Of a stretch of 64,000 nucleotides of DNA, positions 6,626 through 24,040 are shown piece by piece. Position numbers and translations under genes: made by a program. The stretch is taken from positions 16,916-80,915 of the forward strand of contig CBDFKU010000015.1 in assembly GCA_965248975.1 (NCBI GenBank), read 5' to 3'. This DNA comes from Dehalococcoidia bacterium (lineage in GTDB: Bacteria > Chloroflexota > Dehalococcoidia > Lucifugimonadales > JAGWBF01). How positions within the stretch are numbered: the stretch's first letter is position 1; the number at the start of each line of letters is the position of its first letter. Under the pieces are notes generated by a model that was given only the letters and a program-made list of their open reading frames with translations, made no database searches and was not told the origin of the DNA.

Positions 6626-8011
6626 TTGAATAGTCGGACTGCCGAACTGAAGGACCTGGACAAGACCCACGAGGAACTTATGGACGAGCTCTTCCAGATG
6701 CGGCAACGGGTGGCGCAACTGGAGGCCGCCGCCGCTCGGCGAGCCCAAGACGAGGAGGCCCTTAGGGAAAGCCTGGAGAGGTACAAAAGGATATTCGAGT
6801 CGGCTCCACTCCCCATGTTTGAAGAGGACTACTCCAAACTTATGTCGGTTTTGACCGGCTTGAGGGCTCAGGGGGTCACCGATATCCGGGGATATTTCGA
6901 CGAGCATCCCGAGTTTCTCCGCCAAACCATCGAGCTAATAATGGTCCGAGACGCCAACGCCGCCATGGTAAATACCTTCGGCGTCGAGAGTAAAGAGGCG
7001 CTGCTGGGACCCCTGCGGATAATCTTCGAAACTGAGACGTTGGATGACGTCTTCAAGGATCTTGTGGTCGCCCTGATCGAAGGAAAGACGTATTTCGAAT
7101 GTGAAACCGTCGGTCGTACTCTGGATGGACGCCGATATAACTCGCTGCTGAGCCTGGCGGTGCTTTCAAAGAGCGCTTGCCTCGACAGTGTCCTGGTCAC
7201 CACGATGGACATCACCAAGCTAAAGCAGACCGAAGAGGCCTTGAAACAATACAGCGATGACCTGGCCCGGTCGAATACAGAGCTGGAGCAGTTCGCCTAC
7301 GTGGCTTCCCACGATCTGCAGGAGCCGCTGCGCAAGATCCAAGCTTTCGGCGATCGCCTGGAGGCGACCAACGGCGATGCCCTCAGTGAACGTGGCCTGG
7401 ACTACCTGAGGAGGATGAAGGACTCCGCCTCTCGCATGCAAAACTTGATTTCCGACATGTTGACACTGTCGCGTGTCACCACCAAGGGGCAGCCCTTCGT
7501 GGTGGTGGAACTGGGCAACGTAGTCCGGGAAGTACAATCCGATCTTGAGGTGCGAATCGAGAAGGAAGGCGCTACACTGGATATCGGGGACCTGCCGGCC
7601 ATCGAGGCCGATCCGACCCAAATGCACCAGCTGTTCCTGAACCTCATCGGTAACGCCGTCAAATTTCGGCGCGAGGACGTGGCTCCGGTGGTCAAGGTGA
7701 GAAGCGAGCTCTTGACCGAGGAACCAAGCCTTCAGGCCGGAGGCCGGTGGTCCCAGCGGATCTGCCGGATCACCATACAGGACAACGGCATCGGGTTCGA
7801 CCAGAAGCATGCCGAACGCATCTTCACGATTTTCCAGCGCCTCCACGGACGCGAAGAATACGAGGGGACCGGCATCGGTTTGGCCATCTGCGACAAGATC
7901 GTCCAGCGACACAGTGGGACGATCACGGCGGAGGGTACGTCCGGGCAGGGAGCTTCGTTTACCATTACCCTTCCGACGAAACAAGCTGATGGAGAAGGTT
8001 CTGATGAGTAA
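6626..8011 (+). CDS. PAS-domain sensor histidine kinase
   Basis: 461 aa. N-terminal coiled coil, a PAS-like region, H-box FAYVASHDLQEPLRKI, and N/G boxes (LIGNAVKF, DNGIGF, GTGIGLAICD). TTG start is as given by the track. Confidence 0.9.
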   Translation: MNSRTAELKDLDKTHEELMDELFQMRQRVAQLEAAAARRAQDEEALRESLERYKRIFESAPLPMFEEDYSKLMSVLTGLRAQGVTDIRGYFDEHPEFLRQTIELIMVRDANAAMVNTFGVESKEALLGPLRIIFETETLDDVFKDLVVALIEGKTYFECETVGRTLDGRRYNSLLSLAVLSKSACLDSVLVTTMDITKLKQTEEALKQYSDDLARSNTELEQFAYVASHDLQEPLRKIQAFGDRLEATNGDALSERGLDYLRRMKDSASRMQNLISDMLTLSRVTTKGQPFVVVELGNVVREVQSDLEVRIEKEGATLDIGDLPAIEADPTQMHQLFLNLIGNAVKFRREDVAPVVKVRSELLTEEPSLQAGGRWSQRICRITIQDNGIGFDQKHAERIFTIFQRLHGREEYEGTGIGLAICDKIVQRHSGTITAEGTSGQGASFTITLPTKQADGEGSDE

Positions 8012-8450
8012 TCGCTCTGAAGCCGTCACCGTCCTTATAGCCGAGGACGACCCGGAGGACCGCATGCTGGTGAGAGAAGCCTGGGAAGAGAGCCAGATGG
8101 TCAATGAGCTCCGTTTCGTCCAAGATGGCGAGGAGCTGTTGGAATACCTGAACCGATCTGGTCCTTACGCAAGCCCGGCGGAGGCGCCGCGCCCAGGCCT
8201 TATCCTCCTCGATCTGAATATGCCCAAGAAGGACGGCCGCGACGCCCTTAACGAGATCAAGTCGGACCCCCGCCTCCGGCAGATTCCCATCATCGTGCTG
8301 ACCTCCTCCAAAGCCGAGGAAGATATAGTCCGAACCTACGACCTTGGGGTCAACTCGTACATCACCAAGCCGGTGACCTTCGACCAACTGGTGGAGACAT
8401 TGAAGACCCTAGGGAAGTATTGGATCGAAATCGTAGAGCTGCCGGCATAA
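8004..8450 (+). CDS. single-domain response regulator (CheY/Rcp1-like receiver)
   Basis: MSNRSEAVTVLIAEDDPEDR...LILLDLNMPKKDG...IIVLTSS...YITKP. The start overlaps the kinase stop (ATGAGTAA). Alternative in-frame ATG at 7989. Confidence 0.88.
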   Translation: MSNRSEAVTVLIAEDDPEDRMLVREAWEESQMVNELRFVQDGEELLEYLNRSGPYASPAEAPRPGLILLDLNMPKKDGRDALNEIKSDPRLRQIPIIVLTSSKAEEDIVRTYDLGVNSYITKPVTFDQLVETLKTLGKYWIEIVELPA

Positions 8451-8532
8451 GACCCAAGAGTGGTCTATCCAGGGAACAGGTGCCCTAGCAGCAACCAGTC
8501 TGACCCCAATGCTGAGCTAGAAGGGGTAAGAG

Positions 8533-9573
8533 ATGGCCGACACGGCCCCGGCGCTGAAGGTACTCCTGATCGAGGACGATCCCGACGACGCCTTCCTAGT
8601 ACGGGAGACGCTGTCGGAAACCAGAGGTGTGAGGATCGACCTGGAGGTCGTCGACCGTCTCTCCCCGGGACTGGCCCGTCTGTCAACAGGTGACATCGAC
8701 GTGGCCCTGCTGGACCTTTCCCTACCCGATAGTCACGGCCTGGACGGACTCGCGGAGGCCCATTCAAAGGCGCCCAATGTACCGATCATCATCCTTACCG
8801 GCCTCAACGACGAGTCACTGGCTATCGAAGCGGTGCGCAAGGGTGCCCAAGACTACCTGGTAAAGGGCCAGTTCGGCGCCCTGCTGCTGGAGAGGTCTTT
8901 GCTATACGCTAGGGAGCGCAACCGGCTGTTAAGAAACCTGGAAGCACGAATGAAGGATCTGCGCGCCAGCGAAGACCGTCTGCGCAAAGTCATTCGAAAC
9001 AACGCCGACGGGATCGTAATTCTCGATACGTCTGGAACGGTCCGGCTTGCCAACCCGGCAGCGGCCGCGATCCTTCAGCGTGACCCCAATGTTTTGTCCA
9101 TGGTCTCCTCCAGTTTTCCCGTGGCAGCTCAGGAAACCAGGGAGCTTACCGTCGGCGACCCCGAAGACGCCCAGACGATCGTAGAGATGCGGGTGGTGGA
9201 AACGGACTGGGAAGACGAACCCGCTTACCTTGCTACGCTGCGCGACGTGACGGAGCGAAAGAGGATTCTGGAGGAGAACGCCCGGCTGGAGATGCTGGTC
9301 CAGACCGCCAGGGCCCTTACGCATCATATTCGGAACGCGTTGAGCCCGATCATAGGTCGCGCCGAGGCATTCGACGAGAGTACGCCAGGAGCGGCCACCA
9401 ACCTGAAGACCAGCGCCCTTGCCGGAGCCCGGAGGATCGAGGCCGTGCTGGACGCCGTCACCGAGATGGCGAAAAGTGGGAACGTCGGCCTGACCGAATA
9501 TCCGGGAGCGCAAAACATGCTAGACATAGAGCCTTCGATCCGGCGTCACATGAAGGATGGCTTGGGGGAGTAA
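8533..9573 (+). CDS. response-regulator receiver + PAS + HisKA-like (DHp) helix protein lacking an ATPase domain
   Basis: 346 aa. KVLLIEDDPDD...LLDLSLPDSHG...IIILTG...YLVKG receiver, a PAS-like middle part, and an H-box-like ARALTHHIRNALSPIIGRAEAF. I could not see N/G1/G2 boxes after it. Confidence 0.8.
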   Translation: MADTAPALKVLLIEDDPDDAFLVRETLSETRGVRIDLEVVDRLSPGLARLSTGDIDVALLDLSLPDSHGLDGLAEAHSKAPNVPIIILTGLNDESLAIEAVRKGAQDYLVKGQFGALLLERSLLYARERNRLLRNLEARMKDLRASEDRLRKVIRNNADGIVILDTSGTVRLANPAAAAILQRDPNVLSMVSSSFPVAAQETRELTVGDPEDAQTIVEMRVVETDWEDEPAYLATLRDVTERKRILEENARLEMLVQTARALTHHIRNALSPIIGRAEAFDESTPGAATNLKTSALAGARRIEAVLDAVTEMAKSGNVGLTEYPGAQNMLDIEPSIRRHMKDGLGE

Positions 9574-20441: not shown

Positions 20442-21206
20442 CTAACCGCCTCGCGGCGCGACCTCCGGTTGGGTCTCCCTGCCACGGGCCGCAAACCTGG
20501 CCAGCAGTATACCCACTTCGTACAGCAGAATCAGGGGCGCGGCCACCAGGGACTGGTTTATAGGATCGAAGGTGGGGGTTATCAGGGCCCCAAGTACGAA
20601 GGCCACCACGACCCAGTAGCGCCTCCACCGGGCGAATCCCCTGCCCGTGACAATCCCCAGCTTGGCCAACAGGAACATCACTATGGGCGTCTCGAAGACG
20701 ATCCCCATCCAGAACAGCAGCATCACCATCACGTTCACGTAGTTCCCTATGCGTATCAGAGGGGTGGCCAGGTCGCTTCCCCAGCTCAGCAGGAAGTCGA
20801 TGGCCGGCGGAATCAGCACGAAGTAGCCGAAGGACACGCCCGCCGCAAAAGCCACCACCACTCCCGGCATGAAGCCGAAGAGGTAGCGCCTTTCCTTCGG
20901 GGTGAGTCCGGGAGCCACGAACATGATGACTTGGTAGAGGATCACCGGGAACGCCAGCACCAGCCCGGCCACTAGGGAGACCTTGAAGGTAACGGCCACC
21001 ATCTCGGTGACCTCCACGAATACGAGCCCTGGCCCTCCGCCTGTCGCGGCGGTCAGGTCATCGGCAGGGCGCAGCAGCAGCCTTATGATGTCCTTGTAGA
21101 AGACGAAGGCCACGGCGATGCCTACCACCGTGGCCAGGCCGGAGATCGTCAGCCTGCGTCGGAGCTCGGCCAGGTGCTGGGTCACCGGCCTCTCCCGGTC
21201 CTTCAA
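20442..21206 (-). CDS. tatC: twin-arginine translocase subunit TatC
   Basis: 254 aa, six-TM pattern. HLAELRRRL...PGLTPKERR are typical TatC motifs. Confidence 0.9.
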   Translation of the reverse strand: MKDRERPVTQHLAELRRRLTISGLATVVGIAVAFVFYKDIIRLLLRPADDLTAATGGGPGLVFVEVTEMVAVTFKVSLVAGLVLAFPVILYQVIMFVAPGLTPKERRYLFGFMPGVVVAFAAGVSFGYFVLIPPAIDFLLSWGSDLATPLIRIGNYVNVMVMLLFWMGIVFETPIVMFLLAKLGIVTGRGFARWRRYWVVVAFVLGALITPTFDPINQSLVAAPLILLYEVGILLARFAARGRETQPEVAPRGG

Positions 21207-21439
21207 CTGTGCCCCCCGGGAGGCCTTCTTCCGTCGCCGTCGGGGGGTTCGATGTTTTCCATCTCCCGACGCAGATCCCGCTCCTCGGCCTCGACGGCTT
21301 TGGACAGATCGCCCATGGCGCGACGCACTTCACCCAGGGCTTTGCCGGCGCCCCGGGCCATATTGATGGCTTTGGCCGGGCCCAACACGACCAAGGCGAT
21401 GGCTATTATCATCATCAGCTCAAGACCACCGATACCCAT
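21203..21439 (-). CDS. tatB: TatA/TatB-family protein (TatB-like), translationally coupled to tatC
   Basis: MGIGGLELMMIIAIALVVLGPAKAINMARGAGKALGEVRR. The stop overlaps the tatC ATG (ATGA). Confidence 0.7.
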   Translation of the reverse strand: MGIGGLELMMIIAIALVVLGPAKAINMARGAGKALGEVRRAMGDLSKAVEAEERDLRREMENIEPPDGDGRRPPGGHS

Positions 21440-21444
21440 GAAGC

Positions 21445-23346
21445 TCAATTCGGATGCACTCCTTCCCCAGGACCCGACGCTTTGAGGGGACACCGCGAGC
21501 AGCCGTCGGTCGCCGGTGCGTGGTGCGTCCACTCCTCCCCGAGGCCCGCGTCGGCCAGTAAATCTGTCAGGGTGCACAGCGGGAGCCCAACCACGTTGGT
21601 GTAGCACCCGTCCACGTGGGCCGCGGGCCGAAACGCCGGGTCCTGGACCGCGTATGCCCCGGCTTTGTCCATGGGCTCGCCGGAAGCGACGTAGGCCGCC
21701 ACTTCACCATCCGAGTAATTCCGCATGGTCACGTGACTGACCAGGCTTGCCACTCGCTCGCTCCCGCCTCCGGCGCCCACAACCGCCACGCCGGTTACGA
21801 CCTGGTGTTCTCGGTTCCTGAGACGGGAGAGCATTTCCGCGGCCTCGTCCTCGTCCCTGGGCTTGCCAAGTGCTTCCCCGTCCAGTACTACGGTGCTATC
21901 GGCTCCCACCACCAGGCCCGACGTACGAGACGAAGCAACCTTCCTGGCCTTGGATAGGGCCAGCCGCTCTACCATGTCCCCGGGCGACTCACCATCCTGA
22001 GTGTCTTCGGCCACGTCCGGCGCGACGACGCTGAACTCCAGGCCCAGCTGGGCCAGCAGCTCCCTCCTCCTGGGCGAGGTGGATGCCAGGACGACGTCGG
22101 ACTGCGGGGAGGAGTGCTGCGCGGCCGGCGCACCGGGTTCGGCGGCATGCCCGTCCCACACCAGAGTCGCCACGCACTCGATGTGATGGGTCTGGGGGAA
22201 CATGTCCACCGGCTGCACGCTCTCCAGTCTGTAAGGGCCACAAAGCACCTTCAGATCACGAGCCAGGGCTTCTGGGTCACAGGAAACATATACCACCCTC
22301 TCTGGAGCCAGCCGGATGACGGCTTCGAGGGCGTTGGGGCGGCAGCCCACTCTGGGCGGATCGAGTATCAGCCCGTCGGGTGGCTCCTCCATCAGGGCCA
22401 GCACCTCTTCGGTCTTCCCATGAATGAATCGTAGATTGTCGATGCCTTCGGCGTTGGCCTCGGCGTCCTGTACAGCAGAGGCCGAATCTTCGATGGCCAC
22501 TACCTGCCCGGTATGGGGCGCCAACATGACTGCAAACACGCCGACGCCAGCATAGGCATCTACGACCGACTCCCTCCCAGACAACCTCAGGCCGTCCTTC
22601 ACCAGCTCGAGGATCCGTTCCGCCTGCCTGGTGTTGACCTGGAAGAAGGAGGAGCTGGCGACACGAAACTCCCGGCCATCCAGGCGCTCGCTATAGTGGG
22701 TTTGGCCGGACACCAGGCACACCTCTTCCGTCTTCAACACAGGCTGGACCAGAAAATCGCCGGTGTTCACCCCGTATCTGAGGGACAGCTGGCTGGTCTC
22801 GGCGCACTTGCGCTGGAGCAGGCCCAAGGCGTCGTTGATCCAGGGGTGCATCAGCAGGCACCTGTCCACCACGACGAACCTGCGGCTCTCGCGGTTGACG
22901 AAGCCCAGCTCTCCATAGCGTCTGCCGACGGTAAACCGGGCGTGGTTCCGGTATCCGTACTCCTCGGGCGAGGGTAGTGTGGGATGGACCAGGCTTACGT
23001 CAAAGCCGCCGGCACGCTCGAGGGCCTCCACCACCATGCTTCTCTTGGTCCGAAGCTGGTGCTGATAGTCAACGTGCTGCCACTGGCAGCCGGTGCATGA
23101 CCCGAAGTACGAGCACGGCGCCTCGATCCGATGTGGTGAGGGCTCGATGACCCGGGTCACCCGCGCGGCGATATAGTCCCGCCGACCCGTTATCACCTCG
23201 GCTTCTACCTCTTCTCCTGGGATGCCTCCGAATACACGAACCTCCTGCCCATTATGGCTAGCCAGGGTCTCCCCCTGACGTCCCCAACATTCGAGGCGCA
23301 CCGTTATGTGCTCTACGGGCAGATCTTGTCGCACTTTCGACGCCAT
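21445..23346 (-). CDS. fusion protein: RlmD/RumA-like 23S rRNA (uracil-C5) methyltransferase (TRAM + 4Fe-4S Cys + SAM MTase) fused to a Maf nucleoside-triphosphate pyrophosphatase domain
   Basis: Single uninterrupted frame. N-part has APCSYFGSCTGCQWQH, VDAYAGVGVF, DPPRVG and a C-terminal MTase end FPQTHHIECV. After the linker AAEPGAPAAQHSSPQS comes Maf: VLASTSPRRRELL...GADSTVVLDG..LGKP...DKAGAYAVQD (21445-22098). Start is uncertain (ATG 23346, ATG 23409 or GTG 23433). Confidence 0.8.
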   Translation of the reverse strand: MASKVRQDLPVEHITVRLECWGRQGETLASHNGQEVRVFGGIPGEEVEAEVITGRRDYIAARVTRVIEPSPHRIEAPCSYFGSCTGCQWQHVDYQHQLRTKRSMVVEALERAGGFDVSLVHPTLPSPEEYGYRNHARFTVGRRYGELGFVNRESRRFVVVDRCLLMHPWINDALGLLQRKCAETSQLSLRYGVNTGDFLVQPVLKTEEVCLVSGQTHYSERLDGREFRVASSSFFQVNTRQAERILELVKDGLRLSGRESVVDAYAGVGVFAVMLAPHTGQVVAIEDSASAVQDAEANAEGIDNLRFIHGKTEEVLALMEEPPDGLILDPPRVGCRPNALEAVIRLAPERVVYVSCDPEALARDLKVLCGPYRLESVQPVDMFPQTHHIECVATLVWDGHAAEPGAPAAQHSSPQSDVVLASTSPRRRELLAQLGLEFSVVAPDVAEDTQDGESPGDMVERLALSKARKVASSRTSGLVVGADSTVVLDGEALGKPRDEDEAAEMLSRLRNREHQVVTGVAVVGAGGGSERVASLVSHVTMRNYSDGEVAAYVASGEPMDKAGAYAVQDPAFRPAAHVDGCYTNVVGLPLCTLTDLLADAGLGEEWTHHAPATDGCSRCPLKASGPGEGVHPN

Positions 23347-23600
23347 TGCAGACACTATAACCCAACCCTCTTTCAGTGCCAAGGGACGATGGATAGCGAC
23401 GTTAGGCATAGATGACTGGGTTCTGTTTCTCACGGTCTCCGTCGGGCAGCTAGCAAGGGTCTTTTCACCTTCCTGTCATGCTGAGGAGCCCTTCGGCGTT
23501 TCTCAGGGTAAACTACGCGACGAAGCATCTGGTGGGGGGCGGTCACCGCCTCAGGCTCAGGGTGACAATGAAAAGACCAGGGGAGGCCAACCGACCCAGG

Positions 23601-23713: not shown

Positions 23714-24040
23714 ATGGCAGAACCCTTCGCAGTAACCGATAACGACTTCGACGAGAAGGTCTTGAAGTCCGACCGCCCAGTGCTGGTGGACTTTTGGGCC
23801 GACTGGTGCATGCCCTGCAAGATGATTGCCCCGATAGTCGAGGAGCTCTCCGCAGAGTACGATGGAAAGTTGGACTTCGCCAAGCTGGACGTCGACTCCA
23901 ACGACAAGACCGCTATGACCTACGGCGTACGCAGCATTCCCACCCTCCTCATCTTCAAGGAGGGTCAACCAATAGACCAGATCGTTGGGGCAGTGCCCAA
24001 AGGCGTGCTGAAGAAAAAGATCGACTCGGCCCTGGGTTAA
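23714..24040 (+). CDS. trxA: thioredoxin with atypical WCMPC active site
   Basis: 108 aa. VLVDFWADWCMPCKMIAP...YGVRSIPTLLIFK. SD AGGAAAGGAG. Confidence 0.9.
   Translation: MAEPFAVTDNDFDEKVLKSDRPVLVDFWADWCMPCKMIAPIVEELSAEYDGKLDFAKLDVDSNDKTAMTYGVRSIPTLLIFKEGQPIDQIVGAVPKGVLKKKIDSALG

Follow-up and report, generated by a model that had tools for sequence, protein, structure and literature searches.

Escherichia coli RumA, also named RlmD, is the methyltransferase that forms 5-methyluridine (m5U) at position 1939 of 23S rRNA (PDB 1UWV, 2BH2). In the same family, RlmCD of Streptococcus pneumoniae and Bacillus subtilis methylates both U747 and U1939, and PAB0719 of Pyrococcus abyssi forms m5U54 in tRNA (PDB 2JJQ/2VS1). 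For the Maf proteins the role in vivo is debated, with house-cleaning of modified nucleoside triphosphates (NTPs) on the one side and control of the dTTP/UTP pool and of cell division on the other. Here, a gene of a Dehalococcoidia bacterium is described in which a predicted RNA m5U methyltransferase module is followed in the same reading frame by a Maf module. The gene lies on the minus strand of a 64,000-nucleotide stretch of contig CBDFKU010000015.1, which as a whole is referred to as the window.

A Maf domain covalently fused to an S-adenosylmethionine (SAM) methyltransferase is also found in human ASMTL (PDB 2P5X), and a functional link between Maf proteins and methyltransferases was published in 2013, based on ASMTL and on archaeal gene neighbours. 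However, ASMTL is a eukaryotic protein with a YhdE-type Maf at its N-terminus and, at its C-terminus, an ASMT-like, small-molecule O-methyltransferase homologue whose substrate is unknown, whereas the window protein carries an N-terminal methyltransferase of the RumA RNA m5U type. The window fusion is analogous to ASMTL and not of the ASMTL type.

Two enzyme modules in one reading frame

The gene is contained in a single uninterrupted open reading frame (ORF) of 662 amino acids (aa) with a GTG start, as found in the ORF listing; residue numbers below are those of this ORF and all coordinates are collected in Table 1. A first-pass annotation made from the sequence had described one unbroken frame with a complete RumA/RlmD-type module, an Ala/Pro linker of about 20 aa and a complete Maf domain, and this architecture was recovered together with every motif that it had quoted.

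For the methyltransferase module, Pfam tRNA_U5-meth_tr (PF05958) matched residues 253-422 (8e-20; 71.5 bits against a cutoff of 23) and NCBIfam TIGR00479 (rumA) scored 313.2 bits (cutoff 183.55), while the narrower RlmD model NF009639 stayed under its cutoff (227 against 458 bits). Over its first ~180 aa the protein can be aligned to RumA residues 15-181, that is to the TRAM domain and all four iron-sulfur (Fe-S) cysteines, and the alignment to RumA as a whole covers its residues 15-181 and 241-426. A Pfam search of the translation had been proposed in the first-pass annotation with three domains in mind; tRNA_U5-meth_tr and Maf were significant in it and TRAM (PF01938) was not, the latter being recorded in several homologues. 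In the catalytic domain motif I reads DAYAGVG and DPPR is present as well; C385 (in VSCDP) would be the nucleophile and E419 (in HHIEC) the general base. The C-terminal part of the module could be aligned to RumA, RlmCD and PAB0719 with both of these residues matched. The position aligned to E419 is Gln in PDB 5xj2/5zq0 and Glu in the related chain 5xj1. Among 127 window-type fusions D292, G296, E315, D358, P359, C385, E419 and the four Fe-S cysteines are invariant, and C107, C113, C116 and C192 are putative [4Fe-4S] ligands. The Fe-S motif is shared with PAB0719, whereas RlmCD has no Cys at the motif positions in the alignment. Like RumA, the window protein combines a TRAM region, a central four-Cys [4Fe-4S] domain and a SAM domain with the same catalytic Cys and Glu; unlike RumA, to which it is only ~25% identical, it adds a C-terminal Maf. 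Judged by these features, the module is a complete RumA/RlmD-type [4Fe-4S] RNA m5U methyltransferase.

The RNA target could not be assigned from sequence, as tRNA and rRNA enzymes score equally: RumA, RlmCD and PAB0719 matched the window protein with E-values of about 1e-39 to 1e-38. The target could be U1939 or U747 of 23S rRNA or U54 of tRNA. Since RlmCD and PAB0719 show that the family can act on tRNA or on two rRNA sites and score as well as RumA, and since NF009639 is below its cutoff, the name RlmD does not appear secure for the window protein.

The Maf module was matched by Pfam Maf (PF02545) at residues 447-628 (1.1e-56; 192 bits against 27) and by NCBIfam TIGR00172 (maf; 163.7 bits, cutoff 117.15). 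Over its full length it can be aligned with YhdE of E. coli and with Maf of B. subtilis (BSU28050). Maf proteins share the signature S-R-E-K-D-K (YhdE S10, R13, E33, K52, D70 and K82), and the residues R-T-Q mark the YhdE subfamily as opposed to W-Q-E in YceF (PMC3899018). The window protein has the full signature (S453, R456, E476, K495, D512, K524) and, at the subfamily positions, R455, S513 and Q597; it shares with YhdE and B. subtilis Maf the R and Q of R-T-Q and differs from YhdE in a Ser at the position of Thr71. K495, D512, K524 and Q597 are invariant in 127/127 fusions and S453, R455, R456 and E476 in 126/127, and the Thr71 position is Ser in 93/127 and Thr in 34/127. By its sequence the Maf appears to be of the YhdE type, with a conservative Thr-to-Ser change, and is clearly not YceF-like.

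Further differences from YhdE, besides the covalent methyltransferase, are a C-terminal tail of ~30 aa and a set of four cysteines, made up of C610 and C620 in the last Maf segment (GC-x9-C, about 21574-21606) and of C645 and C648 in the tail. C610 and C620 are present in 127/127 fusions and C645 in 126/127, and the C648 position holds Cys in 115 and His in 9. The set also occurs in most stand-alone Dehalococcoidia Mafs adjoining rlmD, and it is missing from YhdE, from B. subtilis Maf and from fusions of reverse domain order (see below). The four residues may form a Zn or Fe site that is specific to the Mafs of this lineage.

The Ala/Pro-rich linker between the modules varies among relatives in sequence and in length (7-35 aa). 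In an AlphaFold2 (AF2) model built on 101 homologues, the predicted local distance difference test score (pLDDT) falls below 50 at model residues 404-414, corresponding to ORF residues 433-443, with a mean of 90.3 for the whole protein and a predicted TM-score (pTM) of 0.67. By fold, the model matched RlmCD and RumA over their full length at a TM-score (TMt) of 0.75-0.78 (RumA: 0.77-0.78), with RlmCD and PAB0719 as the best matches, and YhdE with a TMt of 0.93 and 43% identity for the Maf part; no solved structure in this fold search spans both halves. In one cluster representative (P0046) the first ~20 Maf-domain residues fail to align (ELQEARAPGRSGHWLSGR), which resembles a local frameshift.

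It had also been noted in the first pass that ATG, GTG and TTG are absent from the Maf N-terminus, and the start-codon scan returned none of them in frame over residues 426-473. The closest upstream in-frame GTGs (residues 421 and 425) fall within the final strand of the methyltransferase and are not preceded by a Shine-Dalgarno sequence, and the next in-frame start after the linker is V474, where initiation would delete the catalytic S-P-R-R motif. Separate translation of the Maf part was rejected on these grounds; as a usable internal start is lacking, the Maf module would always be produced joined to the methyltransferase.

Spread, origin and annotation of the fusion

The best-scoring 120 homologue clusters at 90% identity all carry PF05958 and PF02545 (590-705 aa, 54-100% identical), and clustering at 50% identity left seven full-length representatives of the window-type architecture plus fragments. 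Among GTDB species representatives, the in-frame fusion was found in 14 genomes of Dehalococcoidia/Chloroflexota (L001-L012, L015 and L017); in one of them (L002) a stop precedes the true start and the fusion itself is in frame. A relative with 85% identity, located on a 2.2-Mb contig, has a 634-aa fusion gene with the same neighbours. The window holds no second Maf or COG2265 gene within its 64 kb.

That an indel in the contig hides a stop between two genes was a concern of the first-pass annotation, and some relatives do have the two genes separate and in different frames, with P0046 seemingly frameshifted at the junction. An assembly or sequencing artefact was nevertheless rejected and is extremely improbable, as the fusion is shared by the 120 clusters and by 14 independently assembled genomes at 50-85% identity, the 85%-identical relative has the same gene and neighbours, and a separate Maf would have no start codon.

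In nine other Dehalococcoidia genomes (L014, L016, L018, L019, L022-L024, L027 and L045) rlmD is followed by an adjacent, separate maf; these include one SAR202 genome and one Dehalococcoidales genome at 36% identity. The unfused maf is in another frame than rlmD or lies after a stop, with overlaps or short gaps and junctions at ~7120-7330 in locus coordinates. At the L045 junction the genes overlap by ATGA, and in L014 an in-frame stop is followed by ATG 33 nucleotides (nt) on. In all loci, fused or unfused, tatA and then tatC follow the pair, and a divergent thioredoxin gene usually precedes it. Because these nine genomes keep adjacent separate genes, the fusion is taken to have grown out of a conserved block, trx followed by rlmD-maf-tatA-tatC, in which adjacent and often overlapping rlmD and maf lost their stop/start junction.

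In a further genome (L013, Baikal-deep-G114) a 437-aa ORF at 7338-8651 is placed between rlmD and maf. Judged by eye and not by a family library, its translation looks like a membrane transporter. In the tree the RlmD of this genome falls among the fused genes, so the rlmD-maf pair may have been split secondarily. Four of the assemblies with separate genes (L016, L019, L023 and L024) have universally unique identifier (UUID)-style isolate names; our guess is that these may be long-read assemblies, and if so some calls of separate genes could be frameshift errors.

The representative search also turned up proteins of ~640 aa with an N-terminal Maf, in which the Pfam layout is reversed (Maf at 2-185, TRAM, and tRNA_U5-meth_tr to the C-terminus). 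With one of them (P0205) as query, at least 120 clusters were obtained, all with both domains (39-100% identity, 94-100% coverage). Carriers are WOR-1/Saganbacteria, Omnitrophica, Aminicenantes/Acidobacteriota, Ratteibacteria and metagenome-assembled genomes of Clostridiales. These proteins (e.g. P0205 and P0292 of WOR-1) share both families with the window protein and have the two active sites and the Fe-S motif conserved; unlike it, they have the Maf in front, the canonical R-T-Q motif and no four-Cys set, and their gene neighbourhoods differ from one another and are without the tatA/tatC synteny. Their methyltransferase domains are 28-38% identical to that of the window, compared with 38-58% for adjacent-gene Dehalococcoidia RlmDs. 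They are monophyletic (96/100 bootstraps) and never group with the window's clade, this separateness being the only well-supported part of a neighbour-joining tree that was made from simple distances. Because the domain order is reversed, the methyltransferases form a clade of their own and the gene contexts are unrelated, the same two families have been joined at least twice, independently.

NCBI names both architectures '23S rRNA (uracil(1939)-C(5))-methyltransferase RlmD' (P0091, P0294, P0304, P0320 and others). At JGI 'RlmD' is used as well, apart from one product name that reads 'RumA/MAF protein'. Under the label 'RlmD' the second enzyme goes unnamed, and an rRNA target is asserted that is not established. 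A full-text literature search found no paper that describes a RumA/RlmD-Maf fusion; apparent matches in BREX and Dnd papers were discarded, as these do not contain the stand-alone word 'Maf'. Both modules belong to ordinary, known families, and their fusion is a widespread and apparently undescribed variant of the Maf-methyltransferase theme. The first-pass annotation, to which the architecture was not known to be described, agrees with the literature search, and the models for both domains scored above their cutoffs; in databases, however, the fusion is common, mostly under the RlmD label and once under a name that gives both parts, and a common, already annotated architecture is in part what the first pass had named as speaking against its reading.

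Functional meaning and competing explanations

YhdE-type Maf proteins hydrolyse dTTP, UTP, CTP, m5UTP, pseudo-UTP and m5CTP, and m5UTP consistently had the lowest KM and the highest kcat/KM in all four YhdE-type enzymes tested (PMC3899018), so that the activity on m5UTP named in the first-pass annotation is the reported preference of the subfamily. According to a proposal made there, RNA turnover sets free modified nucleoside monophosphates (NMPs), which are phosphorylated again and then have to be removed (PMC3899018). The explanation that we favour, with moderate confidence, is a bifunctional fusion of producer and sanitiser whose benefit lies in co-expression and co-regulation rather than in channelling. 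One polypeptide of ~633 aa would methylate, with its N-terminal module, C5 of a specific uridine in structured RNA (Cys385 as nucleophile, Glu419 as base) and hydrolyse, with its Maf module, pyrimidine NTPs to NMP and pyrophosphate; by family precedent, m5UTP would be the best substrate, next to pseudo-UTP, m5CTP, dTTP and UTP. The methyltransferase product would stay inside the RNA, and the Maf substrate would arise only after RNA turnover and re-phosphorylation. Fusion would oblige the m5U producer to be expressed together with the enzyme that clears m5UTP from the pool used for transcription.

A fixed inter-domain interface, as channelling would need it, is unsupported by the model. Direct channelling is unlikely and the modules most likely act independently, because the linker is disordered and variable, the pTM is 0.67 and the product of the methyltransferase is buried in RNA; co-expression is preferred over channelling on account of the disordered linker.

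Coupling of producer and sanitiser is supported because YhdE-type Mafs prefer m5UTP and because the fusion to an m5U-forming enzyme recurs. The first-pass annotation had proposed a Rosetta-stone link between m5U formation in RNA and the sanitation of m5U nucleotides; the link itself is strengthened by the independent reverse-order fusions in several phyla, while the coupling to sanitation stays a putative one. Several observations weigh against such a function. The tree interleaves fused and unfused genes, which suggests easy fusion and fission instead of strong selection for covalent linkage and hints at several fusion or fission events in Dehalococcoidia, although the core clade has a bootstrap of only 48/100 and relationships within Dehalococcoidia are weakly supported. 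The pair lies in a conserved block with the functionally unrelated tatA and tatC, so the genes may be neighbours by inherited synteny and may have become fused when a stop codon was lost near-neutrally. The disordered linker of varying length and sequence and the pTM predict no fixed interface, the Thr position of the YhdE motif is Ser in the window and in the 93 relatives counted above, and the substrates of YhdE-type Mafs, which have been connected with growth and division control, include dTTP and UTP.

In the main alternative, two operon neighbours of an old Dehalococcoidia housekeeping block, with physiologically unconnected activities, were fused neutrally, a small mutation having removed the stop/start junction. 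The rlmD-maf-tatA-tatC block with its divergent trx is kept whether fused or not, the junctions in relatives, such as those of L014 and L045, are short overlaps or gaps that a single mutation could turn into a fusion, the linker is unconserved, fused and unfused genes are mixed in the tree, and the domains share no predicted interface. This alternative is nonetheless unlikely in our view, as at least five further phylum-level groups carry the same families fused the other way round, with unrelated neighbourhoods and in a separate clade, and as the best substrate of this Maf subfamily is the triphosphate of the very nucleoside that the partner makes. The Maf module might instead be mainly a dTTP/UTP pyrophosphatase that serves pyrimidine pools, growth or division, or a nucleotide-sensing regulator of the methyltransferase, and not a sanitiser of m5UTP. 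The KM values of YhdE for dTTP and UTP are in physiological ranges, its overexpression is reported to retard growth, and with Ser at the T71-equivalent position of most fusions the base pocket could differ slightly. Against mere binding by a regulator, the full catalytic signature is invariant, so that hydrolysis is expected; either role would leave the repeated pairing with an m5U methyltransferase unexplained, and m5UTP was kinetically preferred in all four YhdE-type enzymes tested (PMC3899018). We regard both roles as quite improbable.

The repeated covalent pairing (at least twice) counts as independent genomic evidence for house-cleaning and points to m5UTP as the relevant substrate. The specificity of the partner makes the house-cleaning hypothesis sharper and testable, and the fusion would offer a compact system, with producer and sanitiser on one polypeptide, in which recycled modified nucleotides can be tested as a hazard. 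A bolder claim, of which we are rather doubtful, is that the recurrent fusion reflects selection for stoichiometric coupling of m5U synthesis with m5UTP destruction, with m5UTP and not dTTP or UTP as the physiological Maf substrate and with stray m5U incorporation as a real cost to fitness. In a still stronger version the two domains would communicate, for example with Maf signalling the state of the m5UTP/dTTP pool to the methyltransferase, or with both domains working on one RNA-decay intermediate.

Gene start and neighbouring genes

The maximal ORF is probably over-extended at its 5' end, and a coding sequence (CDS) of 633 aa was chosen because of the starts of the homologues, a 634-aa relative with 85% identity to the window protein (P0002) and a promoter-like site in front of ATG 23346. 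The start of 97/126 homologues aligns to ORF residues 32-33. Compared with the start given in the first-pass annotation, the likely one is 87 nt downstream. The scan for promoter-like motifs found 3 sites against 0.4 expected in shuffles, and the short distance between the site and the ATG suggests an mRNA with little or no leader. In the maximal ORF the opening 29 codons are probably untranslated, and likewise the 5' end of a public gene call of 654 aa (P0001).

Table 1. Coordinates of the fusion gene, its domains and motifs, and the neighbouring genes in the window (residues are those of the maximal ORF).
Feature	Position	Strand	Remarks
Maximal ORF	21445..23433	-	662 codons plus TGA stop at 21445-21447
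Most likely CDS, 633 aa (predicted)	21445..23346	-	ATG 23346 is ORF residue 30
Alternative start	GTG 23355	-	from start-codon list
Promoter-like TTGGCA-17 nt-TATAGT	23354..23382	-	10/12 matches; ends 8 nt before ATG 23346
TRAM-like N-terminal RNA-binding domain	23143..23313	-	residues ~41-97; aligns to RumA 15-74; beta-barrel strand pattern in AF2 model
Fe-S motif C107-x5-C113-x2-C116 (CSYFGSCTGC)	23086..23115	-	aligns to RumA cluster cysteines; 127/127 fusions
Fourth Fe-S cysteine C192 (VDRCLLMH)	22858..22860	-	aligns to RumA 'vkqCpil'; 127/127 fusions
Class I SAM-dependent m5U methyltransferase catalytic domain	22159..22716	-	residues 240-425
Ala/Pro-rich inter-domain linker	22096..22158	-	residues 426-446; no in-frame start codon
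Maf domain, YhdE subfamily	21541..22095	-	residues 447-631
C-terminal extension with C645-x2-C648	21448..21540	-	residues 632-662; AF2 pLDDT 71-81
tatA	21203..21439	-	PF02416; ATG 5 nt after fusion-gene stop
tatC	20442..21206	-	PF00902, 2.6e-64; overlaps tatA stop by 4 nt
Thioredoxin gene	23714..24040	+	divergent upstream neighbour, conserved
Second TatA/E-family gene, 74 aa	20186-20410	+	PF02416, 1.7e-17; convergent with tatC

A window scan found no terminator-like site in the interval between the fusion gene and tatA, which is probably co-transcribed with it. The divergent thioredoxin has the active site WCMPC in place of the canonical WCGPC. On the other side of the pair, two tatA paralogues flank tatC, and the same layout is present in the 85%-identical relative (L085).

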